Positions 15,441-42,583 of a stretch of 64,000 nt of DNA are shown in pieces. This DNA is from Candidatus Uhrbacteria bacterium (GTDB lineage: Bacteria; Patescibacteriota; Patescibacteriia; SG8-24). Positions within the stretch are counted from its first letter, which is position 1; each line of letters opens with the position of its first letter. The DNA is taken from contig JAFGIV010000013.1 of assembly GCA_016929435.1 (NCBI GenBank), positions 15,822 through 79,821 on the forward strand, given 5' to 3'. Both the position numbers and the translations under genes were made by a program. Below the pieces are notes generated by a model. The model was not told the DNA's origin and did no database searches. It saw only the letters and a program-made list of their open reading frames with translations.

Positions 15441-15442
15441 AA

Positions 15443-15473
15443 AATACCCGATCTGACGATCGGGTATTTTTGT
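15443..15473 (+). terminator. Intrinsic terminator after tRNA-fMet
   Basis: tacccgatc-tgac-gatcgggta followed by a T-tract. Confidence 0.5.
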
Positions 15474-15568
15474 ATGTCGAGACACGGGCGGTGCAACTTT
15501 TTGGAACATCACCTTCACCGCTTTCGACTTGCCAAAAACATCCGAATGCGCTATCTTTCTATTCGTGT

Positions 15569-15645
15569 GGCGAGGTAGCTCAGTTGGTTAGAGCGAGGGA
15601 CTCATAAGCCCTAGGTCGTCGGTTCAATTCCGACCCTCGCTACCA
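15569..15645 (+). tRNA. tRNA with CAT anticodon (elongator Met or lysidine-modified Ile2)
   Basis: Canonical D arm (tagctcagttggttagagc), anticodon loop ctcataa, T arm ggttcaattcc, CCA end. Followed by the hairpin aacccgag-ttta-tctcgggtt. Confidence 0.8.
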
Positions 15646-25322: not shown

Positions 25323-25470
25323 GTCCGTTCGGTTAATCGGCGGAGACCTTAGGTCAGATTCAGGGAGCTGTCAAATCGAGTTTTTTGCTTATTTTAAGCA
25401 ATCTGACCGGATGGGTATGTCGGCAACCGGTGTGGATTGGTTGGGGGTTGGGGATAATTTTTTAAGGCAG

Positions 25471-25499
25471 GGGACAGTCCCCAGCTTAAATTTTTAAGC
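25471..25499. repeat. REP-like palindrome copy
   Basis: ttaaggcaggggacagtccccagcttaaa. Confidence 0.65.
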
Positions 25500-25559
25500 T
25501 TCTTCCCTATTTTTGCCCTATTCCCGTTTCAACCCGGATTTCGGGCCGTAAAAAAACAA

Positions 25560-25578
25560 GCCGGGGACTGTCCCCGGC
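25560..25578. repeat. REP-like palindrome copy (short form gccggggactgtccccggc)
   Basis: Perfect 19-bp palindrome with the same GGGGACTGTCCCC core; forms a doublet with the 25471 copy. Confidence 0.55.
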
Positions 25579-25581
25579 CCG

Positions 25582-26163
25582 TCAGTTAAATTTTCCCATC
25601 GCCGATTCCGGGCCGTCGGCCAGTAGCGTCCTCACCGCTTCGGCGGCCCGTTCGGCGGCCGCCTTCAGTTCGGCCAACTCTTCGGCGGACGGCCGACCGA
25701 GGACAAAATCCGCAGCCTCGGACCGTTTGGACGTTTCCGTCCCGATCCCGATCCTCAACCGGGGGAAATCCCGGGTCCCCAGCCGTTCGATGATCGATTT
25801 CAGTCCGTTGTGCCCGCCGGCCGAACCGGACAGACGCAGCCGCAGCCGCCCCAGGGGGATATCCTTCTCGTCAGCGATCACCAGGATGCGGTCCGGATTG
25901 ATCTTGTGGAAGGAGGCGATGGCCGCCACTGCCTGCCCGGACAGGTTCATGAAAGTTTGGGGAAAGGCCAGCATGACCTTCCGTCCGGCCAGTCGGCCTT
26001 TGGCGGTCAGGGCCTTGAACTTTCGGTTCATTGCCAGGGATCCGAAACCGTCGCCGTGCCTCCTTAGGATGGCCTCAATGGCCATGGCGCCGGCGTTGTG
26101 CCGGGTCTGGGCGTATTCCGGTCCGGGATTGCCCAAACCGACGATCAGCCAATCCATGGCCGA
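25582..26163 (-). CDS. pth: Peptidyl-tRNA hydrolase
   Basis: MDWLIVGLGNPGPEY..., canonical Pth N-terminus. The six-frame ORF extends to 26220; the Met at 26163 is preferred. Confidence 0.85.
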   Translation of the reverse strand, partial: SAMDWLIVGLGNPGPEYAQTRHNAGAMAIEAILRRHGDGFGSLAMNRKFKALTAKGRLAGRKVMLAFPQTFMNLSGQAVAAIASFHKINPDRILVIADEKDIPLGRLRLRLSGSAGGHNGLKSIIERLGTRDFPRLRIGIGTETSKRSEAADFVLGRPSAEELAELKAAAERAAEAVRTLLADGPESAMGKFN

Positions 26164-26167
26164 TCCG

Positions 26168-27550
26168 CTACCGCTTGATTTCCCGGACAGCCAGCCGGAT
26201 AGGAGTGCCCTCAAAGCCATACTCGTCGCGTATCCGGTTTTCCACGAACCGGATGTAATTGGGGTGAATCGTCTCCTTTTTCTTTACGGTCATGGTGATC
26301 TCCGGCGGTTCGGTGCCGGTCTGCTTGAGGCCATAGACCTTCGGGCGGGCCATGCCTTTCTTGAATGCGGTGTGGTGGATCCGCTGCATCCTTTCGAAGA
26401 AGGCATCCAGGTCCGGCTGCCCTATCACCCGTCGGCGCTGCTCCAGGACCTTCAGGGCCATGGGGATGACCTTGTTGACCCCGCGGCCGGTCTTGGCCGA
26501 GACGAACAGGAGGGGGGACCAGGCGCAGAAGGGCATGGAAACGGCGAGGTGTTGGCGGAACTCCTCGGCATCACCGATCCTTTTTTCCTCCGCAATGTCC
26601 CACTTGTTGGCGACTACGACGATGCCGACCCGGCTGTCCTCTATCAGGCCGGTCAGCCGTTTCTCTTGGGCGCTGATCCCCTCTGCGGCATCGACCATCA
26701 GCAGGGCGACGTCGGCCTGGCGCATCTCGTTGAAGCTCATTCCGACCCCGGTATGCTCGATTCCCGGTTCCACCTTGGCCTGCTTGCGGATCCCGACCGT
26801 ATCGAATATCCGGACGTTTTTTCGCTCGCCGCTTTCCGGGTCGTCGAAGGCGATCATGGTGTCCTGCGGTTCCTTGGTGGTGTGGGCGATCTCGCTGACG
26901 ATCACCCGTTCCTCCCCGGCCAGGGCGTTCAGGAGGGAGGACTTGCCCACGTTCGGCTTCCCGATCAGGACCATCTTCAGGTCCGGTTCGGGAATCGGCA
27001 CCGAATCCAGCTTCCTTTCCCTGATTTTCTCGATCAGGACATCGAGCATGTCGCCGACTCCGGAGCCGTTGATGGCCGAGCAGGGCAATGGTTTTCCCAA
27101 CCCCAACCTCATCCAGTCCGGGGATTCCGCCCTGCGGCGGGAGTTGGGGCTGTCCGCCTTGTTGGTGACGAGCAGGATCGGTTTTTTGGACTGGAGCAGG
27201 TGCTTGGACAGGGCGCGGTCCTGGGGCATGATGCCGGCAGTGGCGTCGGTCAGCATTAGGATGATGTCGGCCTTGGCCATGGCCGATTCGGCCTGCCGCT
27301 TCAGGGCCTCTTCCGTGGCCCGGTCCGATGTCAGGTCCAGTCCGGCCGTATCGATGGTCGTGACCGTCACTCCCCGCCACTCGAAGCTGCCGTAGTTGAG
27401 GTCCCGGGTGGTCCCTTCCTTGCCGGAAGTTATCGCCTTGCGTCTTTCCAGCAGGCGGTTGAACATGGTGGATTTTCCGGTGTTCGGCCGGCCGACGATG
27501 GCGACGACCGGGGTCAGTTTCAGGCGTGTGTCCATAATGGTTTCTGTCAT
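26168..27550 (-). CDS. der: Ribosome-associated GTPase Der/EngA
   Basis: Two tandem GTPase domains (GRPNTGKST and GKPNVGKSS P-loops) plus C-terminal KH-like domain. Confidence 0.9.
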   Translation of the reverse strand: MTETIMDTRLKLTPVVAIVGRPNTGKSTMFNRLLERRKAITSGKEGTTRDLNYGSFEWRGVTVTTIDTAGLDLTSDRATEEALKRQAESAMAKADIILMLTDATAGIMPQDRALSKHLLQSKKPILLVTNKADSPNSRRRAESPDWMRLGLGKPLPCSAINGSGVGDMLDVLIEKIRERKLDSVPIPEPDLKMVLIGKPNVGKSSLLNALAGEERVIVSEIAHTTKEPQDTMIAFDDPESGERKNVRIFDTVGIRKQAKVEPGIEHTGVGMSFNEMRQADVALLMVDAAEGISAQEKRLTGLIEDSRVGIVVVANKWDIAEEKRIGDAEEFRQHLAVSMPFCAWSPLLFVSAKTGRGVNKVIPMALKVLEQRRRVIGQPDLDAFFERMQRIHHTAFKKGMARPKVYGLKQTGTEPPEITMTVKKKETIHPNYIRFVENRIRDEYGFEGTPIRLAVREIKR

Positions 27551-27710
27551 TTTCGCAAAGGCGGCAATTCCGACGGTTTCATGCCCTTGTTTCCCGTTGG
27601 GGTCCGTGCGATCTTTTTATTCGGATAGGTTCAGGCAAGATCGCATTATCGCTTATTTACAATAATAGCACAAGGGGCTGACCCCACGGGAGCCGTTCGG
27701 TCGGATTTTT

Positions 27711-27741
27711 AAAGACACCGATTTTCGATCGGTGTCTTTTT
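27711..27741. terminator. Bidirectional intrinsic terminator
   Basis: gacaccgat-tttcg-atcggtgtc, a perfect 9-bp stem flanked by A- and T-tracts; downstream of the LCP gene on the minus strand. Confidence 0.6.
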
Positions 27742-27769
27742 GCCCGACTTTCCAAATTCCTTCCCGATT

Positions 27770-29209
27770 TCAATTCGGCACGTCCCGCCCCAAAATGATC
27801 AGGATATCCGCGGACGGTTTTCCGGTTCCGGACGGGGCCGGGGAGACGGATATCTCCGGATCGGCGGTTCCCAGCCGCTTAGCCAGGTCCTCGATGTTCC
27901 CGGCCATTTTCCCGCCGGTGAGGTCCTGGATGGCCGTGCGGCTGCGGGCCTGGTTGCTGGCGTTGCCTATGTCGTGAATCCGGTAACCGAGGGTTTCCAG
28001 GGTTTTGGCGGTGTTGGCGGCCAATCCGGTTCGGGTGGTGCCGTTAAGGATCTCCAGCCTTATCTCGGACGGCTGGACGGCTTCCGGAGGATCGTCGTTC
28101 TTGGCCGTTTCCGTGGCGGTTTTCGGTGCGGCCACGATGTCGCTGGTTTCCCCGAACAGCCCTAGGGCCAACTGGCGCAGGCCGTTCCAGTCGCTGTTCC
28201 TGGGGACAAGGACATAGGCCCCGTTGACCGAGGCCGACATCAGCGGGGAATCCGGACCGTCACCGATGACCTTGTGGACGATCTGTCCGGGATCAACGGC
28301 CCGGCCGATCTTGGCCAGGCGCAGGATTTCCCCGAGCTGCAGGTTGGTCCTGAAATTGTCCCTGACGTCAGAGAGGAGGGAGGATACCGTTGCCGGATTG
28401 CGCAGGAACTTCAGGGTCAGCAGCTGGTCCTTCAGGGCCAGGAGCACCTTCTGCTGCCGTTTGGCCCGGGAAAAATCCGACCCTTCCCCATTGTTTCCGT
28501 GGCGGGATCGGGAATATTTAAGGGCCGTCTCCCCGTCCATCAGCTGCGTCCCTTTCCTGAACGACACCGCCTGGTATCCGTGGCTGTCGGTTGGGTAGGA
28601 ATAGTCCGTGAAATCCCGTTCAACATCAATTTCGACCCCTCCAAGGTCGTCGATGATTTTTCGGAATCCGCTGAAGTCGATTCGGACATGGTACGGTATC
28701 TCCATCCCCAGGAGCCCCTCGACGGTCGTTCGGGCCAGGTCTGCCCCGCTGCCCTCCTCGGCCGATTCGCCGTAGGCGTTGGCGGCGTTGATCTTCTGCC
28801 ACCCCCGTCCCTCAATTGGTGCCAGGAGATCGCGGGGGATGGAGAGCATGGCCACCCTGCTGTCCGATGGGCGGATGCTGGCGACGATGATGGTGTCGGT
28901 GAGCATCGGTCCGTCATGGCCCTTGCCGCCCATTCCCAGAAGCAGGATGTTGATCCGGTCTTCGGCTTCCCCCAGCAGGCGGCGGTCCGGACTGGCGATC
29001 AGGTGCATCTGACGGAAGATGGGGATGTCGTCCAGGCGGGTCAGGGCGGCGGCGGCCGTTTCCGTCAGGGAAAGGCGGCCCAGTCCGAAGGATACGGAGA
29101 ACATCAGGATCATGGCAAAAACCAAAAAGGCCCGGTTACCTTTCCGTCCCTTCCCCGTCGGGTTGGGGATGCGGGTGCCGTTCAGCAGGTTTATCTTGAC
29201 TGGATTCAT
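27770..29209 (-). CDS. LytR-CpsA-Psr (LCP) family cell-envelope phosphotransferase
   Basis: N-terminal TM anchor; LCP core (INILLLGMGGKGHDGPMLTDTIIVASIRP...MLSIPRDL). Confidence 0.8.
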   Translation of the reverse strand: MNPVKINLLNGTRIPNPTGKGRKGNRAFLVFAMILMFSVSFGLGRLSLTETAAAALTRLDDIPIFRQMHLIASPDRRLLGEAEDRINILLLGMGGKGHDGPMLTDTIIVASIRPSDSRVAMLSIPRDLLAPIEGRGWQKINAANAYGESAEEGSGADLARTTVEGLLGMEIPYHVRIDFSGFRKIIDDLGGVEIDVERDFTDYSYPTDSHGYQAVSFRKGTQLMDGETALKYSRSRHGNNGEGSDFSRAKRQQKVLLALKDQLLTLKFLRNPATVSSLLSDVRDNFRTNLQLGEILRLAKIGRAVDPGQIVHKVIGDGPDSPLMSASVNGAYVLVPRNSDWNGLRQLALGLFGETSDIVAAPKTATETAKNDDPPEAVQPSEIRLEILNGTTRTGLAANTAKTLETLGYRIHDIGNASNQARSRTAIQDLTGGKMAGNIEDLAKRLGTADPEISVSPAPSGTGKPSADILIILGRDVPN

Positions 29210-29340
29210 GTGAAGTTTCGCTTTCTGTATTATAATATACGAGTCAGCGCATAAATCAAGATGCGTTTCGGCCGCAGGGATGGCCGCGCGTTCTTAACTG
29301 ATGCGGTGGGGCAGGCCCCCGCCGTGTCGCCCCAAGCGTC

Positions 29341-30426
29341 ATGTCAAAGGTTTTCGTCACCGGAGTGGCCAGGGGCCAGGATCCGCAGCGGACAAAAAAG
29401 GCAATTGCCGAAGTTTTCCTGAAGGCCAGCAACGATTTGTCCTGGCTCAAGAAGGGTGATTTGGTCCTGCTGAAACCGGCCCTGAATTCGCCGGACCCGT
29501 ATCCGTCCACGACCGACCCGTTGGCGGTCGAGGCCGTGGCCGAACTGATCAAAGAGCGGGGCGGGCAGGTCGTTGTCGGCGACCAGAGCGGCATTGAGCA
29601 CGTCATTCAGACCGAAAGGGGGGTCTTTAGGGGCGATTCGGCCGATAATTTTCTGAAATCCGGAATGGGCAGGCCGGGACAGCATGAGTTTGCCGCCTTC
29701 GAGAAAGGGGACTGGAACGGCGGGTTCTATAATTTCAAACCGGAAGACGGCAGCCAGTGGCCGGACGGGTTTTGGGTTACCGAATGGATCCGCAGGGCCG
29801 ATCACATCGTCAACCTGCCGCGCCTGAGTACCCACTCCCAGGCCGGGGTCACTCTCGGTTTCAAGAATCTTGTCGGCCTGCTGCGTGAGGACAGCCGGAT
29901 GGAGTTTCACGCATCCGGCCCGATGTCGGTTTTTCCCCGCCTCTATGCGGCCGGAAGCGGCCTGAAGACGGGTTACGGGCGCCAGGGGGACTTTTGGAGA
30001 AAGGTTACGGAAATCAGCCTGGCGGTTCGGGACAGGATGAGGCTGACCTTGTTTTCCGGGACCAGGGCCCAGCTGACTTTCGGGCCGGACAGGAAGACGG
30101 TGGGGGTTTTTTCTGCCAAGGCCGTTGAGCCGGAGACCGGATTGGTTTTCGCCAGCGCCGATCCGGTGGCCGCCGAAGCGACGGCCATTGCCTTCATGTC
30201 ATTCCTTTACGGGCAATTGCCCCTGTCCGCCAGGATGCTCCAGAAATTACTGGTGGCCATGAACGGGAAGATCGGGGATTTGGGCCGCCAGCCGGTCTGG
30301 GACAACCCGTTTTTGCGCCACGCCCTGGATCTGGGGTTGGGGGAGAGGGCGGTTGACCTGGACATGACAGACGTGCCGGAAGGTTTGGTTGGGGAGATCG
30401 GGGGGAGGTTGGGACGACTGCCTTAA
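29341..30426 (+). CDS. DUF362 domain protein
   Basis: KVFVTGVARG...LKKGDLVLLKPALNSPDPYPSTTDPLAVEAVAELIKERGGQVVVGDQSG matches the conserved DUF362 N-terminal block. Confidence 0.5.
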   Translation: MSKVFVTGVARGQDPQRTKKAIAEVFLKASNDLSWLKKGDLVLLKPALNSPDPYPSTTDPLAVEAVAELIKERGGQVVVGDQSGIEHVIQTERGVFRGDSADNFLKSGMGRPGQHEFAAFEKGDWNGGFYNFKPEDGSQWPDGFWVTEWIRRADHIVNLPRLSTHSQAGVTLGFKNLVGLLREDSRMEFHASGPMSVFPRLYAAGSGLKTGYGRQGDFWRKVTEISLAVRDRMRLTLFSGTRAQLTFGPDRKTVGVFSAKAVEPETGLVFASADPVAAEATAIAFMSFLYGQLPLSARMLQKLLVAMNGKIGDLGRQPVWDNPFLRHALDLGLGERAVDLDMTDVPEGLVGEIGGRLGRLP

Positions 30427-30500
30427 TGCCGGACGGGTTGGTTTCGGTGCCATCCCAAAAACTTCCCTGTCAGACGTTGCTCCAACCGCAATACCGGGGC

Positions 30501-30529
30501 TTGACAACCGGATCCGAATAAGCTAGACT
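30501..30529 (+). promoter_or_regulatory. Sigma70-type promoter (TTGACA-17-TAGACT)
   Basis: Exact -35 hexamer, 17-bp spacer, good -10. Drives a roughly 175-nt leader ahead of the GNAT gene. Confidence 0.5.
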
Positions 30530-30705
30530 ATTTTTGCCTATGGATTGCGTCTATATAGCAACTTGCCGCCATCATGCGGGTGTCCTGCCAGGATCCCTGC
30601 CTGATTTGTGCTGAAGTCCAGTTGTCCATTAGACACAAGCGGGTAGTAGGGGTCCTGTCAGGGACCTTTTGTGGTTTTTGGCCAAATTGGCCGGAAAGGA
30701 AAGCC

Positions 30706-31239
30706 ATGTTAGTTCGAAAATTCGTTCCTTCAGACCTGGAAACCTTGGTTTCCATGTACATCGGGTCATTTTCAGAGCCTCCCTGGTATGAGGTCATTAC
30801 CCGGGAAGAGGCGGAAAAGACGTTTTCAGGGGCAATGGCCTATGAGGAGTCCGTTATCTTGACCGGAACGGACGATGACGGCAATCGGCCCATCGGTTCG
30901 GCAATCATGTTTGCGGTCAGCCGCAGGCACGACGTCGTTTCGCTGCTTTCGGGCGAGGACCGAGAGGCTGCCTACCTGGCGGAGGTTTTCGTCCATTCGG
31001 ACCATCGCCACTCTGGGGTGGCCAGCCGCCTGATCGGGGAGATGATGATCAATGCCGCCGCAATGGGGTTCCGTCGGTTCGCCGTAAGGACCTCGGTTGA
31101 CCAGCCGATCATTCGGCGCATCTTCGGCAGACTGGGCTTCTCGGAGGTTGCCGTGGATAGCGTGGAATCGATGAAGCTGGTCGGCGGAGCGATCCGTTCG
31201 GTGCCGGACCGGCGAGTCATAATGTGCGGGGACACCTGA
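30706..31239 (+). CDS. GNAT family N-acetyltransferase
   Basis: Acetyl-CoA binding motif region (VHSDHRHSGVASRLIGEM) and GNAT fold pattern. The upstream ORF extension (30574) is judged non-coding. Confidence 0.65.
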   Translation: MLVRKFVPSDLETLVSMYIGSFSEPPWYEVITREEAEKTFSGAMAYEESVILTGTDDDGNRPIGSAIMFAVSRRHDVVSLLSGEDREAAYLAEVFVHSDHRHSGVASRLIGEMMINAAAMGFRRFAVRTSVDQPIIRRIFGRLGFSEVAVDSVESMKLVGGAIRSVPDRRVIMCGDT

Positions 31240-31330
31240 TCCCGCTTTCCGTGGGGGGATGGCATCTCATCCCCCCACGCCTTCACCAATTAACGCCAGG
31301 GGCGAAACGGCAAATAACCTACAGGGCAAT

Positions 31331-32419
31331 ATGGACAAGGCAGTGGAAATCCTTCGGGAAATAGTCCGAATCCCGTCTTTTGTCGGGAACGGACAGGACG
31401 AGTCGGCCATGGCCGATGCCGTCCGGGAAATGCTTCGGGATTTGGGTGGCCGGTGGAAGGTTACCGAACAGGCGGTGGAAGGAAGGCGGCGCAACGTTTT
31501 CGTGTCCAATTCCCCTGATCCCAAGCTGCTGTTTTTGGCCCACATGGACACCGTGCCGCCGAGCGCCGCCTGGTCCAGGGACCCCTTTGCCGCCGAAATA
31601 GAGGGAGGCCGCCTCTATGGCCTGGGGGCGGTGGACATGAAGGCCGGGTTGGCCGCGATAGTCGATGCCCTGACGGAAAGGAAGGATACCGCCGTGCCGA
31701 CGGCCGCCCTGTTCTATGTGGGCGAGGAGTACGATTTTTGCGGCATGAGGAGGTTCATCGCCGAAAGTCGGCTGGCTCCGGAAACCGTCATCGTTCCCGA
31801 ACCGACTGACCTGAAGGTCTATCAGGGATGTCGGGCCGTGATCGGGGGCGTCATGACGGTAATCGGCAGGACCGGGCACTCGGCCATGAGCCGGGGGACG
31901 GTCAATGCCATTACGGCCGGGTTCCGGGCCCTGTCCGCCCTGGAACGACGCTTGGCCGAAGAGAGGGACGACCGTCTCGGGACATCCAGCCTTAACGTCG
32001 CCGGTTCCGCCGGCGGTGTCCGCCAGGACGGCCGGATCGCGATCGTGGAAAACATGGTCCCTGACTTTGCCCGGTTCAACTTTTCCGTCCGGGCCTCGAC
32101 CCCTTCGGCGGCGGATCTGTCTCTCATAACGAAGGTGGTGGGGCGGGAACTGGAGGGTTGCGGGGCAAAACTGGAGTCTTGCGATTGCCTGGGGACCGGT
32201 GTGATGAAATCCACCGGGAGGTTTGCGGGCTTTCCGGAATTCGAACGGGGGGACGAGTCGGCCTTCGGCTATACCGATTCGGAAATGCTGGTGTCGGCCT
32301 TCGGCGGCAACCCGGTCGTCTGCGGACCCGGACCGATGGGCATGGCCCACTGTCCGGACGAGTATGTTGACCTGGACGAATTCGGAAGGATGACGGATGA
32401 GCTGAGGAAAATGCTGTAA
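31331..32419 (+). CDS. M20 family metallopeptidase (ArgE/DapE-like deacylase)
   Basis: HMDTVP metal-binding motif, GAVDMKAG, and a dimerisation-domain insert. The ORF starts at 31259; MDKAVEIL (31331) is preferred. Confidence 0.7.
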   Translation: MDKAVEILREIVRIPSFVGNGQDESAMADAVREMLRDLGGRWKVTEQAVEGRRRNVFVSNSPDPKLLFLAHMDTVPPSAAWSRDPFAAEIEGGRLYGLGAVDMKAGLAAIVDALTERKDTAVPTAALFYVGEEYDFCGMRRFIAESRLAPETVIVPEPTDLKVYQGCRAVIGGVMTVIGRTGHSAMSRGTVNAITAGFRALSALERRLAEERDDRLGTSSLNVAGSAGGVRQDGRIAIVENMVPDFARFNFSVRASTPSAADLSLITKVVGRELEGCGAKLESCDCLGTGVMKSTGRFAGFPEFERGDESAFGYTDSEMLVSAFGGNPVVCGPGPMGMAHCPDEYVDLDEFGRMTDELRKML

Positions 32420-32450
32420 GGAAGGGTCCAAGACAGAGGAGGGGACTGTC

Positions 32451-32463
32451 CCCGGCAGGACCG
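32451..32463. repeat. REP-like core copy (ggggactgtcccc)
   Basis: Core palindrome only; forms a doublet with the 32512 copy. Confidence 0.45.
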
Positions 32464-32511
32464 GCTTTTTCGGACGGCACACGGGGTCCAGGACGGCGTT
32501 TTTAAGCCGGG

Positions 32512-32540
32512 GACTGTCCCTTGCCTTAAAAGTTTAAACT
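32512..32540. repeat. REP-like palindrome copy (imperfect)
   Basis: ttaagccggggactgtcccttgccttaaa; overlaps the stop region of the RAYT gene. Confidence 0.55.
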
Positions 32541-33145
32541 CCGTCGAATTTCATCAAATTTGATTCTTCGGAAAAGCTCGTCAGATGACCGATCTCCATC
32601 CTGTGCTCGGTCAATTCCCTATGGGCCCGATGCCGGCTCAACGGATCATCGCCGATTGATAGGTATTGGTCGTCGAAAGTGATGATTCTGTCGTGCGGAG
32701 AAGAGGTGTGCCCACGGTAGCTGGTCCATCGGTATTGTTCCGGCCGTTCGCACAGGCCACTCCTTACGGGATTCAACTCTATGTAAGAAGAACAGGTTGC
32801 GAAGTAGATTTCGTCAGAAATCAGCTTACTTTTGAACCTGTCCTGCCACAGGTGTCCGATCCCGCCGTACTTGTTCCTGTGCCAGATCGAGTATCCCTGT
32901 TCGATCATCTTCATGGCCAAGGAAAGACATCCGGCATTTAGAGAATCGACCAGGAGATGATAGTGATTCGGCATCCAGGCATAATAGAATATCCTGATGC
33001 CTGTTTTTCGTTTGGCCCTAAGGATCAGCTGGCGGAATTTTAGACAGTCTTCATCGTCGTGAAACACAGGTTTTTTGTTGTTGCCTCGGTTATAGACATG
33101 AAATATCCCCACATCACCGATGACACCCCTTGGTTTTCTGGGCAT
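32534..33145 (-). CDS. IS200/IS605-like HuH tyrosine transposase, REP-associated (RAYT-like)
   Basis: HuH motif MPNHYHLLV; C-terminal catalytic Tyr region QYRWTSY; about 200 aa. Flanked on both sides by REP-like palindromes. Confidence 0.7.
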   Translation of the reverse strand: MPRKPRGVIGDVGIFHVYNRGNNKKPVFHDDEDCLKFRQLILRAKRKTGIRIFYYAWMPNHYHLLVDSLNAGCLSLAMKMIEQGYSIWHRNKYGGIGHLWQDRFKSKLISDEIYFATCSSYIELNPVRSGLCERPEQYRWTSYRGHTSSPHDRIITFDDQYLSIGDDPLSRHRAHRELTEHRMEIGHLTSFSEESNLMKFDGV

Positions 33146-33276
33146 AGTGCGATGTTTTTACGCCTTGCCCAGAAATATTGCAAATTCAATTTTTTAGCTT
33201 TGGTTGGCAAAAAGGGTTATACGGTTGATGTTTTGATTGAGCATTTCTCGTATTTGATTGTTGATAACCTGAAAAG

Positions 33277-33306
33277 TTTAAGGCAAGGGACAGTCCCCAG
33301 CTTAAA
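33277..33306. repeat. REP-like palindrome copy
   Basis: tttaaggcaagggacagtccccagcttaaa. Confidence 0.6.
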
Positions 33307-33333
33307 AAATTTATAAACAGGTCGGCTTTTCGC

Positions 33334-33362
33334 TTGACACCAGAACCGATAGCTGGTATTTT
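33334..33362 (+). promoter_or_regulatory. Sigma70-type promoter (TTGACA-17-TATTTT) for the rpsL operon
   Basis: Sequence match; about 130 nt upstream of rpsL. Confidence 0.45.
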
Positions 33363-33489
33363 ACGGCTAACGCGACTGCGATTTTTTTGTTGCGGTCCGC
33401 CTGTCCGTAAATAGCTGCTGCGGCGGGTGCGATGTCGTGGCTGACATCGGGCGCAAACCGTCATTATTAAGATAACCTGAAAATCGGCT

Positions 33490-33909
33490 ATGCCGACAAT
33501 GAATCAGCTGATTCGTCGGGGGCGCAAGACGGCCAAGGTGAAATCCAAGACACCGGCCCTTCAGTTCACCCTCGATTCGCTTCACCGCCGCAAGACCGAC
33601 CTGAAGAAGGGTTCGGCCTTCAAGCGCGGGGTCTGCGTCAAGGTCACCACCACCACCCCGAAGAAGCCTAACTCGGCCCTTCGGAAGATTGCCCGTGTCC
33701 GCCTGTCGAACGGCATGGAAGTCACCGCCTACATTCCCGGCGTCGGACACAACCTGCAGGAGCACTCCATCGTCATGCTGCGGGGCGGCCGCGTCAAGGA
33801 CCTTCCGGGTGTCCGGTACCACATTGTCCGGGGCGTTTATGATACCCAGGGCGTACAGAACCGCCGTCGGAGCCGTTCCGTCTACGGCGCCAAAAGGCCC
33901 AAGGCCTAA
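33490..33909 (+). CDS. rpsL: 30S ribosomal protein S12
   Basis: [14 protein letters not shown]...[10 protein letters not shown], near-universal S12 sequence. Confidence 0.95.
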
Positions 33910-33925
33910 TTAAGGTCGAACGACT

Positions 33926-34393
33926 ATGAGAGGAAAGAAAGCGACAAGGCGCGAAATCCGTCCGGATTCCAAGTTCGGGAACCAGACCGTCGCCAAGCTC
34001 ATCAACTACATAATGCTGGACGGAAAGAAATCCGTCGCCCGGGGAATCGTCTATGAGGCCCTGGACACCGTCTCCAAGAGGACCGAGAAGGATCCCCTGG
34101 ACGTATTCGACGAGGCGATGAAAAACATCACCCCAACGGTCGAGACCAAGTCCAAGCGGGTCGGCGGCGCCAATTACCAGGTGCCAATGCCGGTTCGGGG
34201 CGAGCGTCGGATGGCGCTGGCCTTCCGTTGGCTGATCGAGGCCGCCCGCCGGAAGAAGGGGAAATCAATGGGTAGCCGCCTGGCCTCCGAGCTTATGGCC
34301 GCAGCCCAGGGGGAGGGCGACGCCGTCAAGAAGAAGATGGACGTCCATCGGATGGCCGAGGCCAACCGGGCCTTCGCCCACTTCTCCCGTTAG
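33926..34393 (+). CDS. rpsG: 30S ribosomal protein S7
   Basis: 155 aa, S7 pattern; str operon order. Confidence 0.92.
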
Positions 34394-34414
34394 CGGCGAT
34401 CCCGTCATCCTGAT

Positions 34415-36508
34415 ATGTCAAGACAATTTTCCTTGGATCGAATCCGGAACATAGGCATCATCGCCCACATCGACGCCGGGAAGACCACCTTCAGCGAACG
34501 GGTCCTGTTCTATACCGGAAAGAAGCACAAGATCGGCGAGGTGCACGATGGGGGGGCCACCATGGACTGGATGGACCAGGAACAGGAGCGGGGCATCACC
34601 ATCACCTCCGCCGCCACCACCTGCCTTTGGAAGGACCACCAGATCAACCTGATCGACACCCCCGGACACATCGACTTTACGGTCGAGGTCAAGCGGTCCC
34701 TGCGCGTCCTGGACGGTGCGGTCGTCGTCTTTGACGGCGTGGCCGGAGTGGAGCCGCAGTCCGAGACCAACTGGCGCTATGCCGACGATTTTCGCGTTCC
34801 GCGGTTCTGTTTCATCAACAAGCTGGACCGGACAGGGGCGGATTTTTACGCTGACCTGAAGTCCATCCACACCCGACTTACCCCGAACGCCTATGCCATG
34901 CAGCTGCCGATCGGGACAGAGGCCAATTTCGTCGGGATCGTGGATCTCCTGACCCGTCGGGCCGAGATATACAGGGACGACATGGGTAAGGACATAGAGG
35001 AAACCGACTGTCCGGAGGACCTTAAGCCGAAGATGGAGGAATACCGAGCCAGGCTGATTGAGGCGATCGTCGAGAACGACGAGGCCATGATGGAGAAGTA
35101 CCTGGCCGGTGAGGAGCCTTCGCTCCAGGACCTGAAGCGGGCCCTACGCAAGGCGGTCATCAACCTGAACGTCATTCCGGTGTTCTGCGGCACTGCCCTG
35201 AAGAACAAGGGCATCCAGTTCGTCCTGGATGCGGTCGTCGATTACCTGCCGTCCCCGCTGGACGTGCCGGCTGTCAAGGGAATCGACCCGCGCGACGACG
35301 AGAAGGTCCTGGAGCGCGACCCGAGCGACGACGAGCCGTTCGCTGCCCTGGCCTTCAAGATATACGCAGACCCGTTCGTGGGTAAGCTCTGCTTCTTCCG
35401 CGTCTATTCCGGTGTCCTGAAGGCCGGTTCCTACATCGTCAACACCACCACCGGAAACAAGGAGCGGATCGGCCGCATCCTGCGGATGCACGCCAACTCC
35501 CGGGAGGAGATCGAGGAGGTCAGGACCGGGGACATCGCCGCGGCCGTTGGCCTGAAGAACACCTTCACCGGCGATTCCCTCTGCGAGGAGGACCACCAGA
35601 TCACCCTGGAGAAGATGACGTTCCCCGAGCCGGTCATCCACCTGGCCGTTGAGCCGAAGACCAAGGCCGACCAGGAGAAGCTGGCCGTGGCCCTGCAGAA
35701 GCTGGCCGAGGAGGATCCGACGTTTACGGTTCGTACCGACGAGGAAACCACCCAGACGATCATCGGCGGCATGGGGGAGCTGCACCTGGACGTAATCGTC
35801 GAGCGGCTGCGGCGGGAATTCAGCGTGGAATGCAATACCGGCAGCCCGCAGGTCGCCTACAGGGAGACCATCACCAGGTCGGCCGAGGCCGAAGGCAAGT
35901 ACGTCAAGCAATCCGGCGGCCGCGGCCAATATGGCCACTGTTGGATACGGGTCGAGCGGATTCCGGAGGAAGAGCGGGCGGAAAAGGGCAATTTTGCCTT
36001 CCTTGACGAGATCAAGGGAGGCGTCATCCCGCGGGAATACATCCCGGCCATCGGTAAGGGCATCAAGGAGGCCATGGCGACCGGCGTGGTCGCCGGCTAC
36101 CCGATGATCGGCATCCAGGCTGCCGTATATGACGGCACCTACCACGACGTCGATTCCTCGGAGGTGGCCTTCAAGATCGCAGGTTCGATGGGCTTCAAGG
36201 ACGCCTGCCGGAAGGCCGGACCGGTTCTCCTGGAGCCGATCATGAAGGTGGAGGTCATCGTTCCCGAGGATTTCATGGGAGACTGCATCGGCGACCTGTC
36301 ATCGAAGCGCGGCCAGATCAAGGAGATGCGCGACCGCACCAACGGCATCAAGGCGATCGAGGCCTCCGTTCCGCTGTCCGAGATGTTCGGATACGCCACC
36401 CAGTTGCGCTCAATGACCCAAGGCCGCGGTTCCTATACCATGGAATTCAATTCCTACGAACCGGTCCCGAAGAACGTTGAGGAGGCCATCAAGGCAGGGA
36501 AGAAATAG
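34415..36508 (+). CDS. fusA: Elongation factor G
   Basis: G1-G4 motifs ([18 protein letters not shown]); 697 aa. Confidence 0.95.
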
Positions 36509-36527
36509 TCCCCATCAAAAAAATCCA

Positions 36528-36578
36528 AGCATAAGATCGGCATCCCCGTCCGTCAGGCCATGGCCTGCGTGGGGGTGC
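36528..36578 (+). terminator. Compound hairpin downstream of fusA
   Basis: atcggcatcccc...caggccatggcctg...gggggtgccgat nested inverted repeats followed by a T-tract. Confidence 0.4.
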
Positions 36579-36628
36579 CGATTTTGGATCAAAAAATCAC
36601 CCTCAGACGGTTTTTAGGAACGAATCAT

Positions 36629-36657
36629 TTTAAGGCGGGGGACAGTCCCCAGCTTAA
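36629..36657. repeat. REP-like palindrome copy
   Basis: ttaaggcgggggacagtccccagcttaaa. Confidence 0.65.
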
Positions 36658-36701
36658 ATTCCGTTGGAAATTAGAGGTGACCGCTTAAATTTGGTTAGAT
36701 A

Positions 36702-36731
36702 CTTAAGGCAGGGGACTGTCCCCTGCCTTAA
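36702..36731. repeat. REP-like palindrome copy (perfect 29-bp palindrome)
   Basis: cttaaggcaggggactgtcccctgccttaaag; forms a doublet with the 36629 copy. Confidence 0.7.
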
Positions 36732-36907
36732 AGTTTGCGGACTCCCGACACACGGCGGAGACGGGACACCGCCCCGAACATGACGGCGGTTCCGGTTATC
36801 GGCATGCGAAAAGCCACGGACGGTTCCGGGAATGAAGGAATCTTTGGTGATCCGGACGGATCAAGAAAGGGGCATGAGCAGTTATTCGAGATCTGACCTG
36901 CTACCGA

Positions 36908-36930
36908 TAAGGCGGGGGATGTCCCCGGAT
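36908..36930. repeat. Degenerate REP-like copy
   Basis: ataaggcgggggatgtccccggatttg. Confidence 0.35.
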
Positions 36931-36959
36931 TTGAGCAAAACCGTCAATTAAGCTAAAAT
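36931..36959 (+). promoter_or_regulatory. Sigma70-type promoter (TTGAGC-17-TAAAAT) for tyrS
   Basis: Sequence match 8 nt upstream of the tyrS ATG region. Confidence 0.4.
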
Positions 36960-38391: not shown

Positions 38392-38895
38392 ATGAGTTAC
38401 TACATAATCATTCGAGGCCCGTTAGGAAGCGGTAAATCAACGATATCCGAGAAACTCGCTCAAATTCTTGACGCAAAATACATTGGAATGGACGAGGTGC
38501 TCGAAAAGCATGGCCTTGATAAAATGCCGCCTGACGCACCTTGCATACCAGCGGAAAATTTTATAAAAGCAAATGAAATCGTACTGCCAGAAGTAAAAAA
38601 ATTACTTACAGGCGGCAAGATCGTTATTTTTGATGCCTGCTTTTATCATAAGGAAGTGATCGAGCACCTCGTCCAAAACCTTGAAATGCCGCACTACATT
38701 TTTACGCTTAAAGCACCATTGGAACTCTGCATAAAAAGAGATAGTGAACGAAGCAAAACTCTTGGTGAAGGTGCGGCAGGGGCTGTCCATTCGCTCGTTT
38801 CCCGGTTCGACTACGGCAATATTGTTGATGTTACAGGGGGCCTCGAAGACGCAATAAAAGATATTCTTTCTTTCCTACCGATGCCCAAAAATTAA
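38392..38895 (+). CDS. Chloramphenicol-phosphotransferase-like (CPT family) P-loop kinase
   Basis: Walker A GPLGSGKST at the N-terminus; VIFDACF (Walker B-like); overall block order resembles CPT/AAA_33 small kinases. Lies in a low-GC island. Confidence 0.45.
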   Translation: MSYYIIIRGPLGSGKSTISEKLAQILDAKYIGMDEVLEKHGLDKMPPDAPCIPAENFIKANEIVLPEVKKLLTGGKIVIFDACFYHKEVIEHLVQNLEMPHYIFTLKAPLELCIKRDSERSKTLGEGAAGAVHSLVSRFDYGNIVDVTGGLEDAIKDILSFLPMPKN

Positions 38896-39075
38896 ATTAC
38901 TTAACAGCGTGTATGCGGTTCCGTTCGTCGTCGCACCTTATCTTCACTGCACCCATATTTGTTGGTGATTGCGCTTCGCACTATTATTTCACCCGCAAAC
39001 ATCGCTTATATCTGGCCGTCGGGCGCAATTTCGCTCCGCCCCCCAAAACGATTATAATTTTAAGGGAATGAAATT

Positions 39076-40059
39076 TTGATTTTTATGAATCCAGAAATGT
39101 CCCACGGCATTGAACGACCCGAATCACGGCAGGAGGGTTCGGTCGTTCTTGACGCCCTGTCTTTCGAGTTTTGCGGGGATGATTTGGTGCGTGACTTTTA
39201 CGGTAAAAAATTGCGAGAGATGGAAGATTACACAAAATGGCTGGAGGACAGCAGGGAAAATTTAGAACAGAACAGGGAGAAAATAGCCAAGGCCGTGGAA
39301 GACGGCCTGCTCAATGACCCCGAACCAGAAACAATTTGGAAATTTCAGGCCGATAAGGCGAGGGAGAGTCAGGAGAAGGTGTTGGCGATAAAAAAGGAGA
39401 TAGAAAGTAGAATCAAAGAAATTAGGGACGAAACGGGGAGAAGATTGGGCAAATTTCTCCCCGATTGGTTTCCCGGTGAGGCAAGAATCACCTTCACCAT
39501 GAACGAAAAAGCCGATTTTTGCGTTGAAGGCGAAACCGTAACCGTAGATTTGGGACGACTGTCGTTTGAGCAAAACCCGGTCGAAAAAGTGAAGGAAGGT
39601 CTGGCACACGAAGTTTTTCATCTTTGGATGAAGGAGAAAAACAAGCGGCCTGACCCTGAGCGGAGCGATGAAACTGACGATGACCTAAAAAACCAAATCA
39701 TATCCCGAACCGTCGATGAGGGTCTGGCGGTTTTGGTGAGCGGACAATCCTTGGCGGAGCATCACCAAAAACAGGGACGAGACTATCAAGAGTACATTGC
39801 GGAGTCATTTGAATTCTTCAGGGAATTTTTAGCGCAGGATGACGGAGCGGAGCTGGAAAAAATCAACGAGAAGGAATTCAGGAACATGGGACATTTTTAT
39901 GTGGTCGGCAATGAAATCGCGGCGGCTGTCCTGCGGCAGGACGGCATGGAAAAATTTAGGGGACAAATCGTTGAGGCAAGAGACAACCCGCCCGTGTTTT
40001 TGGGGAGATACAGGAAGATTTGCGGAAAAAACGCAGGTTTGCATAAAATCGATCCATAA
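39076..40059 (+). CDS. Hypothetical protein with HExxH zinc-metallopeptidase-like motif
   Basis: 327 aa, Glu/Lys-rich; GLAHEVFHLWM contains HExxH. Low-GC island. Start could be the internal Met at about 39088. Confidence 0.35.
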   Translation: MIFMNPEMSHGIERPESRQEGSVVLDALSFEFCGDDLVRDFYGKKLREMEDYTKWLEDSRENLEQNREKIAKAVEDGLLNDPEPETIWKFQADKARESQEKVLAIKKEIESRIKEIRDETGRRLGKFLPDWFPGEARITFTMNEKADFCVEGETVTVDLGRLSFEQNPVEKVKEGLAHEVFHLWMKEKNKRPDPERSDETDDDLKNQIISRTVDEGLAVLVSGQSLAEHHQKQGRDYQEYIAESFEFFREFLAQDDGAELEKINEKEFRNMGHFYVVGNEIAAAVLRQDGMEKFRGQIVEARDNPPVFLGRYRKICGKNAGLHKIDP

Positions 40060-40293
40060 AAATAATTTTGCCCGAATGGTGTCCGCTATCGTTCGTTAAT
40101 CTGTCGGCGTTAGCCAATGCGGCATATCCGGTTACGGCTTTCGTCCGAAAGCCTCCATCCATATTTTATTTCGCCCCGCCCGACCGTCGCCCGCGCGGCA
40201 TGCCGGCCCGGTGGCCCCGCCGTCGCCCCGCCGCGATCGCACAAACGCCGCCCCTTATCGGAAATGATTTAGCCGCCTAATCTTACTGACAAT

Positions 40294-40905
40294 ATGGAAA
40301 AAGAAGATTTTACGTCGATTGGAATCTGCTTTTCGTGCGGGGTGCGCAAACGAAACGGTAAGGATGTTCTGGCTTGGGATACGCGAGCCAGGACCGATAG
40401 GGCATTCATCCTATACAAACTTGGATATATCAGCAAAATCCTCTGTACCGGGGGCATATTCCAAAAGGGGCAGCAGGTTCCGATCGCCGAATTAATGAAA
40501 GGTTACCTGACAGGAAAGGGCGTGCCCAAAAACGACATTCTAATCGAGACCAGATCCGTGGAAACCGTAGAGAACATAAAATTTTCCCTCTTATTACTGA
40601 AAAAAAGAAATATTCTCAAAAATCTCAAAAATGCCGAGCAGTTGCGCTTGGTTTTGATTAGCGAACCGAATCATTTGCGCCGTATAGAGATTATCGCCCG
40701 TGCTTATTTGGAAAGACACAAAATAGGCAAATTCGTGCCCTTGCTACTCGATCCGGTCCATTACCATATTTCTGAAAAAACCAGGCACGAAGAGGACGCA
40801 ATGCTGTACCATACGGCCCTTGATCCGCTTGGTGAGGGTGAGATTTTTGAAAAAATTAGACAGGAAAGACGTCAGGCCCTTGGCAAAAGACACGGTTCAC
40901 GTTAA
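40294..40905 (+). CDS. DUF218 (YdcF/SanA/ElyC-like) domain protein
   Basis: ILIETRSVETVENIKFSLLLL matches the DUF218 signature (E..S.nT.EN). Low-GC island. Confidence 0.5.
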   Translation: MEKEDFTSIGICFSCGVRKRNGKDVLAWDTRARTDRAFILYKLGYISKILCTGGIFQKGQQVPIAELMKGYLTGKGVPKNDILIETRSVETVENIKFSLLLLKKRNILKNLKNAEQLRLVLISEPNHLRRIEIIARAYLERHKIGKFVPLLLDPVHYHISEKTRHEEDAMLYHTALDPLGEGEIFEKIRQERRQALGKRHGSR

Positions 40906-40974
40906 CGTGTCGGTGTCTTTGAAAAATGACGTCCGCCGAACGGTGGCGTCCAAAATCCCCCACAGGAGGAAAAA

Positions 40975-41376
40975 ATGACGGTACAATTCAGGAAAACATT
41001 AGATACCCTGCTCTCGTTCAACGAAGGAAGGCCTATAAGGGTTGGAGTTCGGGGATCAAGAGAGTATCTAAACGCAATATTGGGCTATTTTCGAGATAGA
41101 TCATTTATCGTCTCTGAACAGGGATCGGTTCGTGATCTCGGGAATGCCTTTCCCATTCCCGAAAACATACCAGATACAGCCCCCGGATATGTAGTCGTGG
41201 TTGATTCAAGGGGTGCTTGGGACAATCACACGATGAATAAGGGAATCCTAACGGCCAATCTGGGAATCTCTGATGGTCAAAACGCCGTTTTTATCTCATG
41301 GACCTCTGATCTCAACGAAACTTCAGGAGGTGGGGCGGAATGGGACACCTCTTTTCTTGAGGGTATTAACCAGTAG
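40975..41376 (+). CDS. Hypothetical protein (133 aa)
   Basis: Intact ORF at the island edge; no motif recognised. Confidence 0.3.
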   Translation: MTVQFRKTLDTLLSFNEGRPIRVGVRGSREYLNAILGYFRDRSFIVSEQGSVRDLGNAFPIPENIPDTAPGYVVVVDSRGAWDNHTMNKGILTANLGISDGQNAVFISWTSDLNETSGGGAEWDTSFLEGINQ

Positions 41377-41512
41377 CTCCTGCCGCCATCCCCAAAAAAA
41401 TCGCCTTGACCGGGGCGATTTTCTGTTCCCCCCGCCGCCAGGTTCCGGAGGTTCGGATATCCGGCATAATCTGGTATAATACCATTGCAGGATAACTCAA
41501 ATACCATTCGGG

Positions 41513-42583
41513 ATGTCCAATTTCAGTTCAGCGGAATTGACCATAATCGGCGCTTTCGGGGCGGTCTTTCTGGCTTTCCTGACGATTCACCCCTACCGTC
41601 GCCGGCTTTTCGGTTGGCGGATCGCGGCGGTGGAGGCGTTCGCCTTCGCCCTGGTCATGATCAACTTCACGGAAATGGTGATGTCCAGGGACAGCGGGCA
41701 GTTTACGGTCCGGACGGTCCTGTTTACGGTTTCGGCCATCGCCGGAACCCTCCTGGTCCGGAGCGTGGTCGCGGAGATGGAAACCCACCGGAAAGTGAAG
41801 GCCCTGGCGGTTCGGCTGAACAGGATGAACCGCGAGCTGCGCCGGATGGACGAGATGAGGAGCGAATTCGTTTCCGTCGCCTCCCACCAGCTGCGGACCC
41901 CGGTTTCGGTCATCAGGGGATACCTTTCCCTCATCAAGGACGGGGCGTTCGGGAAGCTGGAGGGGGACCTGCAGGACAAGATGGAGCAGATATACGACAT
42001 AAACGAACGGCTGGTCCTTTTGATCAACAACCTGCTCAACGTCTCCCGGATAGAGAAGGACGCCGCCCAGTTCTGGTGTTCGGAGGTGAACCTTCCGGAG
42101 ATCATCCGCCGGACGGTGGACAGCATGGGGTTTCGGATCCGCGGAAAGGGGCTGACGCTTGATTTCGTTGATCCGGAAGCCGGAGTGCCCAATGTCTTCG
42201 CCGACCCGGAACGTCTGACCGAGGTGATCGTCAACCTGATCGATAACGCCGTAAAGTACACCTATTCCGGTTCCGTGACGGTGAGCGTTTCGGAGGGGGA
42301 GGACGGGTCGTCGGTCATCGTCCGGGTGAAGGACACCGGCATCGGCATGGACCCGCAGGACATGCACCACGTGTTCCAGAAATACTACCGTCCCCACCGC
42401 CCGACCGACGAGCACCAATCCGGACTGAATCTGGGTTTGGGGCTGTATGTCTGCGCCCGCTTCCTGGAAAGCATGGGCGGGAAGATTTGGGTGGAGTCGA
42501 CGGAACCGGGGAAGGGGACCACCGTCGCTTTTTCCCTGCCGGTCCGTCCGGGCGGGGTCTGCGTCCCCACGGAGGGAAAGTGA
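41513..42583 (+). CDS. Sensor histidine kinase (orphan, no adjacent response regulator)
   Basis: N-terminal TM segments; H-box FVSVASHQLRTPVSVIRGY; HATPase_c N/G boxes (NLIDNAVKYT, DTGIGM, GLGLYVC). Confidence 0.85.
   Translation: MSNFSSAELTIIGAFGAVFLAFLTIHPYRRRLFGWRIAAVEAFAFALVMINFTEMVMSRDSGQFTVRTVLFTVSAIAGTLLVRSVVAEMETHRKVKALAVRLNRMNRELRRMDEMRSEFVSVASHQLRTPVSVIRGYLSLIKDGAFGKLEGDLQDKMEQIYDINERLVLLINNLLNVSRIEKDAAQFWCSEVNLPEIIRRTVDSMGFRIRGKGLTLDFVDPEAGVPNVFADPERLTEVIVNLIDNAVKYTYSGSVTVSVSEGEDGSSVIVRVKDTGIGMDPQDMHHVFQKYYRPHRPTDEHQSGLNLGLGLYVCARFLESMGGKIWVESTEPGKGTTVAFSLPVRPGGVCVPTEGK

Follow-up and report, generated by a model that had tools for sequence, protein, structure and literature searches.

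A dispersed palindrome family and the Y1 tyrosine transposase gene that it brackets in Candidatus Uhrbacteria: a probable REP-like system of TnpAY1 subclass 2.1

Introduction

[quoted passage not shown] (Quentin et al. 2018, PMC6006769). TIRYT genes are flanked by terminal inverted repeats (TIRs) that share the sequence GGGGWSAS and are in some cases self-complementary, as in the family of Stenotrophomonas maltophilia ORF 1152; some TIR families are moderately abundant and occur in dimers or clusters (Di Nocera et al. 2013, PMC3733652). We describe here a family of short palindromes scattered in the intergenic DNA of a stretch of 64,000 nucleotides (64 kb; hereafter the window) from contig JAFGIV010000013.1 of Candidatus Uhrbacteria bacterium, a member of the candidate phyla radiation (CPR). 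The palindromes bracket a gene which, by its sequence motifs, encodes a transposase of this type.

Per replicon, about 12 occurrences of the commonest 16-mer at the flanks of a group 1 gene were counted, compared with 5 for housekeeping genes and 57–140 for the classical REP-associated groups; plasmids, too, carry group 1 RAYTs, which show signs of horizontal transfer (Bertels et al. 2017, PMC5581495). For subclass 2.1, a low number of copies and little identity between them are published traits, and its C-terminal domain has been called heterogeneous in subgroup 2.1.2. The motifs of the subclass are NHVH or NH[YF]H (HuH motif), W[EQ], and YIELNP or Y[IV]HLNP, while the foot of the REP hairpin is characterized by a 5′ GT[AG]G tetranucleotide (Quentin et al. 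2018, PMC6006769). A text search of the literature returned no relevant paper that joins RAYTs or REPINs (paired REP sequences) with Patescibacteria or CPR, and a search of papers for the literal core sequence of the palindromes gave nothing but unrelated eukaryotic primers.

Results

A palindrome family in intergenic DNA brackets a transposase gene

Copy number and gene number are given for the window, about 85% of which is covered by open reading frames (ORFs) in a crude, greedy ORF map. The palindromes are 27–29 nt long and follow the pattern TTAAG(GCA/CY)GGGGAC-W-GTCCCC(RGC/TGCC)TTAA, with six full and three decayed copies. The core GGGGAC-N-GTCCCC, with at most one mismatch, is present nine times, against 0.79 expected from dinucleotide-preserving shuffles, of which none in 100 reaches nine. 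Arm half-sites (TTAAGGCAGGGGAC or TTAAGCTGGGGAC, at most two mismatches) number 12, against 1.6 in random sequence, and these 12 pair to give the six full palindromes. When the six full copies were used to build an nhmmer profile, all of them were recovered (E ≤ 1.4e-11) together with a clear partial copy (25558–25593, E 6.5e-6) and two decayed ones (E values in Table 1), and no further copies were found in the whole 64 kb. A hit at 23664, located inside a long ORF, is probably due to chance.

All nine copies are intergenic. They are distributed over five intergenic regions and are confined to the interval between 9.8 and 36.9 kb of the window, with none from 37 to 64 kb. The scattered intergenic palindromes claimed by the original prediction, which was made from the letters of the sequence, are hence confirmed. 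Three of the coordinates given for them were about 10 nt off and have been corrected from 25471–25499 to 25462–25489, from 32451–32463 to approximately 32440–32456, and from 32512–32540 to 32502–32529. Four of the six full copies have two different arms (hetero-arm form, TTAAGGC(A/G)(A/G)GGGAC-A-GTCCCC(A/G)GCTTAA), the exceptions being the perfect palindromes at 9873 (GCT/GCT) and 36717 (GGCA/GGCA). The combination of a GGCA arm, a central A and a GCT or GCC arm, formerly taken for a single "chimeric" copy, is therefore the majority form.

Among the palindromes lies a gene that had been overlooked, encoding a Y1 transposase of 203 amino acids, with an M20 peptidase gene and rpsL as neighbors. 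It is the only Y1 gene of the window. When one of the two full copies at its ends (Table 1) is read as the reverse complement, 27 of 28 positions agree with the other. It is by such an arrangement, with a dispersed palindrome in inverted copies on either side of a Y1 gene, that REPtrons are defined. Four of the five repeat-bearing regions are located at most 8 kb from the transposase gene, and this clustering suggests, as a mere hint from one window, that the repeats have spread locally. The upstream copy precedes a promoter-like site of rpsL (33334–33362). Since the GC content of the whole unit lies below that of its neighbors, also at third codon positions (GC3 0.60 versus 0.72–0.84 in the neighboring genes), the unit was probably acquired horizontally.

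Table 1. Positions of the palindrome copies, the transposase gene and the unit that they form (coordinates of the window; ssDNA, single-stranded DNA).
Feature	Position	Strand	Remarks
Full copy, perfect palindrome, two GCT-type arms	9860–9886		directly adjoins an IS1595-family element at its right inverted repeat; −13.9 kcal/mol as ssDNA hairpin, z −7.4
Full copy, hetero-arm form	25462–25489	+	pth-dprA intergenic region
Partial copy, core intact, outer arms diverged	25555–25583	−	directly after pth stop codon; terminator-like
Decayed copy, core only	32440–32456		just past M20 peptidase stop codon; E 0.04
Full copy, hetero-arm form, forward on minus strand	32502–32529	−	5 nt past transposase stop codon
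Full copy, hetero-arm form	33278–33305	+	133 nt upstream of transposase start; divergent region
Full copy, hetero-arm form	36630–36657	+	459-nt fusA-tyrS intergenic region
Full copy, perfect palindrome, two GGCA-type arms	36703–36731		ssDNA hairpin −14.3 kcal/mol, z −7.0
Decayed copy, core minus one base, right arm diverged	36908–36931	+	E 0.26
HUH/Y1 tyrosine transposase gene, RAYT/TIRYT type, assigned to TnpAY1 subclass 2.1, 203 aa	32534–33145	−	Pfam, NCBIfam, fold, motifs
Whole TIRtron/REPtron unit (palindrome, gene, inverted palindrome)	32502–33305	−	GC 0.46 versus 0.60 for the window

The exact transposase protein (recorded as "transposase", on a contig of 93.7 kb) and five other proteins of the window are deposited under Candidatus Uhrbacteria bacterium, the host being a metagenome-assembled genome, so that the streamlined genome presumed by the original prediction was rightly presumed. 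The same sequences are present, in short contigs, in the independent Logan assembly of run SRR13394437, and an artefact is thereby excluded.

The encoded enzyme is assigned to TnpAY1 subclass 2.1

Y1_Tnp is the sole Pfam domain of the protein (residues 15–123, E 1.1e-11), and the NCBIfam model of REP-associated tyrosine transposases, NF047646, matches it with an E-value of 1.6e-17. The HUH motif corresponds to N60-H61-Y62-H63, the W motif to HLWQDRF, and the catalytic tyrosine is Y121 within YIELNP; in an alignment with 26 homologues, H63, Y121 and N125 are invariant and H61 is nearly so. Upon comparing the alignment profile with solved structures, the first match obtained is E. coli TnpA_REP (4er8, 4.8e-10), followed by the transposase of ISDra2. 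The AlphaFold model (predicted local distance difference test score, 90.4) has its best fold match with the same E. coli structure (E 2.9e-8) and then with IS200/IS605 transposases. The catalytic motifs are thus intact, and the modeled fold matches TnpA_REP.

The combination NHYH/WQ/YIELNP is the published signature of subclass 2.1. The core of the palindrome family, GGGGACAG, fits GGGGWSAS, and one strand of the copies flanking the gene gives AGGGACAG, the opposite strand GGGGACTG, which is one position off GGGGWSAS. Judged by these motifs, the enzyme is a member of subclass 2.1, that is, of RAYT group 1 or TIRYT. The locus is a TIRtron whose repeats are self-complementary, of the little-studied kind described in 2013; it stands out by its unusual CPR (Uhrbacteria) host and the palindromic form of the repeats.

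Besides the protein signature, the locus shares with TIRtrons the GGGGWSAS inverted repeats at the gene and a small to moderate repeat family often arranged in dimers or clusters, as well as two features of TIRYTs, namely a patchy distribution across phyla and signs of horizontal transfer. It differs from them in that each end of the gene carries a complete 13-nt palindrome instead of half a TIR, in the length of the protein (203 amino acids, against a median of 238) and in the absence of a C-terminal helix-turn-helix (HTH) domain. Both the CPR host and the presence of hairpin-type repeats depart from what has been published for subclass 2.1.

With the REP sequences and bacterial interspersed mosaic elements (BIMEs) of E. 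coli and their enzyme TnpA_REP (RAYT group 2, subclass 2.2), whose structure 4er8 is the best solved relative, the locus shares the HUH/Y1 catalytic core and a single gene with an intergenic, hairpin-forming repeat in inverted copies on both sides, the repeat being also dispersed elsewhere. Unlike E. coli REPs, the palindromes have another core sequence and a tip of 1–3 nt with no loop, and the enzyme has YIELNP where that of E. coli has YIHYNP. The HUH/Y1 fold with a Y...NP motif, proper to the canonical REP/RAYT systems (subclasses 2.2, 2.4, 2.5, 2.7 and 2.8), is present. Membership in canonical REP/BIME was rejected in view of the lack of a GT[AG]G tag, a NF047646 score below the cut-off and the assignment of the enzyme to subclass 2.1 and not to the REP-associated subclasses.

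The IS200/IS605 elements IS608 and ISDra2 have transposases of the same fold, which recognize end-near hairpins on single-stranded DNA. The enzyme studied here has a Y...NP instead of a Y...Q motif, tnpB is absent, the gene is present in one copy in the window, and the hairpins are dispersed alone. Membership in IS200/IS605, for which Y...Q, several near-identical copies and often tnpB are characteristic, was likewise rejected, taking into account YIELNP, the single copy and the M20 peptidase and rpsL genes at its sides.

The doublets are not a replicated unit

Three pairs of copies form doublets with gaps of 67, 43 and 45 nt between their edges (93, 68 and 73 nt between their centres). Paired palindromes 43–67 nt apart and a single Y1 gene in the window resemble the REPIN-RAYT systems of Pseudomonas (Bertels and Rainey 2011, PMC3116915). 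However, the spacers of the three doublets are no more similar to one another than shuffled sequences, in either orientation, so that what is repeated is the single palindrome and not the doublet. As a spacer conserved between copies is the defining feature of REPINs, the REPIN-like doublets that had been proposed were discarded. Of the REP/BIME/REPIN organization put forward by the original prediction there remains that the palindromes are REP-like, with a bracketed RAYT-type Y1 gene and the core recurring at homologues; they are neither canonical REP/BIME nor REPIN. Arm-like fragments (TTAAGCT, GCTTAAA) are found within two of the doublet spacers, at 25494–25501 and 36684–36692, and may be remnants of more decayed copies.

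When folded as single-stranded DNA, the two perfect palindromes are far more stable than shuffled sequences (z about −7) and three further copies are moderately so (z −3 to −4). Rfam searches (gathering score and E ≤ 1) gave only tRNAs and one spurious sub-threshold microRNA hit over the doublet at 36.6 kb. A CRISPR array was rejected as well: the copies extend over 27 kb and five intergenic regions, none of which holds more than three, and their spacing is irregular, not uniform.

The same core flanks homologous transposase genes

A homologue of 61% identity (L055/L056, genome GC 0.39) carries TTAAGGCAGGGGAC-W-GTCCCCYGCCTTAA on both sides of the gene, the upstream palindrome being located 133 nt from the start, at the same distance as in the window. 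A homologue of 44% identity (L075) is flanked by AGGCGAACGGGGAC-A-GTCCCCGTTCGCCT; the 13-nt core is the same, and the outer arms are different yet complementary. In this locus the palindromes occupy positions 5824–5852 and 6451–6478, the downstream one shares sequence with the end of the gene, whose last residues (...GERGQSPFA) it encodes, and a tRNA-Ala gene lies on the minus strand just upstream of the unit (5707–5783). AGGGGAC-W-GTCCCCT flanks a more distant homologue of 31% identity (L043, GC 0.31).

GGGGWSAS repeats are also located beside the gene in all five plasmid-borne homologues inspected (33–40% identity). They are ordinary terminal inverted repeats on the plasmids of Iodobacter, Pseudomonas aeruginosa and Sporomusa, and on that of Skermanella three tandem copies lie upstream of the gene. 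Plasmid NC_007641.1 of Rhodospirillum rubrum ATCC 11170 (L077) carries the sister palindrome GGGGTC-W-GACCCC, flanked by A/T runs, four times within 6.4 kb (at 930, 2236, 2953 and 3713); two of these copies bracket the Y1 "transposase" gene of the plasmid, one 49 nt before it and one 9 nt after it.

The homologues L070 and L073 have a GGGGTCAGAG motif upstream of the gene, and only L073 has an inverted match, CTCTGACCCC, just after it. The Omnitrophota homologue P0046 has, about 236 nt downstream, a GTAG-tagged palindrome, gtagcgAGTCGGTGACAAATTGTCACCAACT (L073 1129–1153 and L074 1507–1531); with this gene bracketed by the GGGGTCAGAG-type inverted repeat, both repeat styles are found at one locus. 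In total, GGGGWSAS repeats adjoin the gene at eleven homologous loci, and the repeat family is linked to the gene physically and evolutionarily.

The core palindrome is clustered in other genomes

A scan of representative genomes for an arm together with the core returned 53 loci (L001–L053), the genome of the window not being among them, against roughly 140 single hits expected by chance (an estimate from 17 fixed bases and 596 Gb). Thirty of the 53 contain 2–6 GGGAC-N-GTCCC sequences within 8 kb, when about 0.008 would be expected. The hosts of these clusters include Bacillaceae, Geothermobacter, Oxalobacteraceae, Kiritimatiellae, Pirellulales, Elusimicrobia, Patescibacteria and others, from more than 10 phyla; examples are Metabacillus niabensis, Bacillus sp., Telluria and Geothermobacter hydrogeniphilus, the latter with doublets 22 nt apart (example loci L004 600–1720, L020, L051, L036 and L049). 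No Y1 gene is present in the 8-kb pieces carrying the clusters, except in L043.

Of the 111 cores found elsewhere, 100 are centred on A or T, any base being permitted by the search, and complementarity at the four positions adjoining the core on the outside is seen in 42–56% of copies, against 25% by chance. The outer arms vary between the genomes and are often complementary. A different organization is seen at a contig end of a Kiritimatiellae metagenome-assembled genome from sheep rectum (L023 6400–6560), where 3–4 tandem copies of a 32–50-nt unit, GACATAATGGGGGACAGTCCCCGAACTTAACT, contain the core as in the window, but as an array and not as scattered hairpins.

Other features of the window

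The copy at 9860–9886 is contiguous with an IS1595-family element (8930–9858) which encodes a DDE transposase (8979–9824; Pfam DDE_Tnp_IS1595, 1.3e-31) and has its left inverted repeat twice (8930–8956 and 9000–9029) and its right one at 9829–9858. As the right end touches the palindrome, either the insertion sequence (IS) was inserted at the palindrome foot or the reverse occurred. REPs are known as targets of IS insertion in Pseudomonas and enterobacteria.

The fusA-tyrS spacer, which harbors three palindromes, is unusually long, and fusA is followed by tyrS, not by tuf. Directly after tyrS comes a low-GC island (38392–42162; GC 0.43–0.48 and GC3 0.39–0.54, versus 0.60 and about 0.8 elsewhere), probably of horizontal origin. 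An AAA_33 kinase-like protein, a putative peptidase (DUF5700) and small ORFs are encoded on it, and an imperfect palindrome of 20 nt is located at 39428–39469. Two tRNA-Met (CAT) genes, 128 nt apart, are located at 15366–15645, with a perfect 15-bp inverted repeat (15439–15472) directly after the first. A single ORF of 3250 amino acids (49568–59320) takes up 15% of the window; its source record names an IPT/TIG domain-containing protein, and it is a giant surface-type protein.

Discussion

Taking together the signature and modeled fold of the enzyme, the bracketing of its gene and the recurrence of the core at homologous loci, we consider it likely that the palindromes are the cognate REP-like hairpin repeats of the adjacent Y1 enzyme. 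How such a system might work can be proposed by analogy with TnpA_REP and with the TnpA proteins of IS608 and ISDra2. The two ends of a classical TIRtron carry GGGGWSAS and its complement, respectively. Here both are fused head to head into the 13-nt GGGGAC-W-GTCCCC, which is extended by TTAAG-type arms and A/T runs. When exposed in single-stranded DNA, for example on the lagging-strand template, each copy would fold into a hairpin with a G/C-rich tip and an A/T-rich foot. The enzyme would bind this hairpin, and cut and rejoin the single-stranded DNA beside it through a 5′-phosphotyrosine link, Tyr121 being responsible for the chemistry and His61 and His63 for holding the metal ion. The hairpin of about 30 nt would in this way be copied or moved to other intergenic sites, in the window mainly near the gene. 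Perfect palindromes may have arisen from the hetero-arm form by correction toward one arm, through either template switching or mismatch correction in the hairpin. The two ends of a TIRtron would pair in single-stranded DNA to give the same stem as that of a free palindrome, and the palindromes can then be viewed as TIRtrons with nothing between their ends.

Several observations weigh against the palindromes being the cognate repeats of this enzyme. With respect to the protein, its NF047646 score (63.8 bits) is below the curated cut-off of 80, and the C-terminal HTH extension typical of subclass 2.1 (Bac_DnaA_C/HTH_23/HTH_28) is absent from its 203 amino acids, whereas the longer homologues of the alignment do have an additional C-terminal segment. 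No REP-like or hairpin-type repeats have been reported for subclass 2.1 (Quentin et al. 2018, PMC6006769), and the literature cited here describes no biochemical test of any enzyme of the subclass. With respect to the repeats, GTAG or GTGG is found at neither foot in any of the nine copies, whose feet are TTAAG/CTTAA plus A/T runs, and as single-stranded DNA four copies, the two flanking the gene among them, have no folding advantage over shuffled sequences. The window contains only nine copies, between 9.8 and 36.9 kb. None of the 185,579 representative genomes scanned for arm and core carries the palindrome in abundance, and the full palindrome was found in one contig of the JGI metagenomes and in no viral contig; the scans of representative genomes and of JGI relied on exact matches, by which diverged copies would be missed. 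Moreover, six homologues of 30–42% identity (L059, L062, L065, L068, L069 and L072) have no such repeats nearby, and the association is thus not universal in the family. The orientation of the centre base in the flanking copies is inconsistent between loci (T/A in the window and L043, A/T in L055, A/A in L075), and the centre base was dropped as an indicator of how a copy is oriented to the gene.

A possible but doubtful alternative is that the gene and its two flanking palindromes constitute an active, recently acquired IS200-like element that moves as a whole, and that the other palindromes are its solo ends or minimal derivatives resembling miniature inverted-repeat transposable elements, and not what a domesticated enzyme of single copy carries as cargo. 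This alternative accommodates the base composition of the unit (GC 0.46 and GC3 0.60, versus 0.60 and 0.72–0.84 in the host), the conservation of the architecture and of the 133-nt leader in the 61%-identical copy, which resides in a genome of very different composition, and the plasmid location and signs of horizontal transfer of group 1 RAYTs; the palindrome, in addition, equals two GGGGWSAS TIRtron ends joined directly. It is less easily reconciled with a single gene copy in the window and an exact protein restricted to a single contig lineage, with the low copy number and low identity between copies published for the class, and with the absence of a tnpB partner. An element moving as a whole and cognate hairpin repeats differ only in what moves, not in the enzyme or in the DNA upon which it acts.

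It is unlikely that the palindromes are selected terminators, or hairpins stabilizing mRNA 3′ ends, with the transposase gene as an incidental neighbor. A terminator or mRNA-stabilizing role had been suggested for the copies from the outset, and for one of them the suggestion stands: the copy following pth, read on the minus strand (25583–25555), forms a 13-pair stem followed by a T-run and fits a pth terminator, so that an RNA 3′ hairpin is plausible as a by-product role. Several copies are also located just 3′ of genes (those of the M20 peptidase, pth, the transposase and the IS1595 transposase) and have A/T-rich flanks. Nevertheless, the post-pth copy is the only one of the nine that qualified in the terminator scan, and terminator-like sites in the region are in total no more numerous than in shuffled sequences. 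The copy at 33278–33305 lies in a divergent promoter region, and fusA already has, upstream of its three palindromes, a strong terminator-like hairpin of its own with a U-run (36532–36586, −37.8 kcal/mol, z −6.1). Terminators were therefore rejected as a general explanation; nor would they be expected to share a 27-nt sequence, or to have the same core flanking homologous transposase genes in unrelated genomes.

Very improbable, finally, is that the palindromes are double-stranded operators of a dimeric regulator of translation genes (the rpsL operon, tyrS and pth): an exact 13-nt palindrome with an odd centre is typical of dimer operators and translation-related genes do lie near copies, but most copies are downstream of genes or between convergent genes, the doublets have decayed members, and the core clusters beside unrelated genes in about 30 unrelated genomes and tracks the transposase family.

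Considering the palindromes, then, as cognate hairpin repeats of the Y1 enzyme, a broader proposal can be made, albeit tentatively: GGGGAC-W-GTCCCC and its sister GGGGTC-W-GACCCC might be, for subclass 2.1 as a whole, the minimal hairpin that serves as single-stranded substrate, corresponding to the GTAG tag in classical REPs, and free palindromes might be "empty" TIRtrons. The palindrome is short and easily synthesized, and the biochemistry is for this reason directly testable; the family on the R. rubrum plasmid offers a cultivable organism in which the link between enzyme and hairpin can be tested.

Subclass 2.1, or group 1, is the largest and most widespread RAYT-like group, and is without a known substrate or role. 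The locus described here and its relatives tie it to a short, strongly conserved palindrome able to form a hairpin. A CPR bacterium with a small genome would thus tolerate a self-propagating repeat family, including a repeat-laden fusA-tyrS spacer of 459 nt. If the broader proposal is true, this largest and so far function-less RAYT group would gain a defined substrate, a REP-like system would be active in a CPR genome, and it would be explained why about 30 genomes, from more than 10 phyla, contain clusters of the core.

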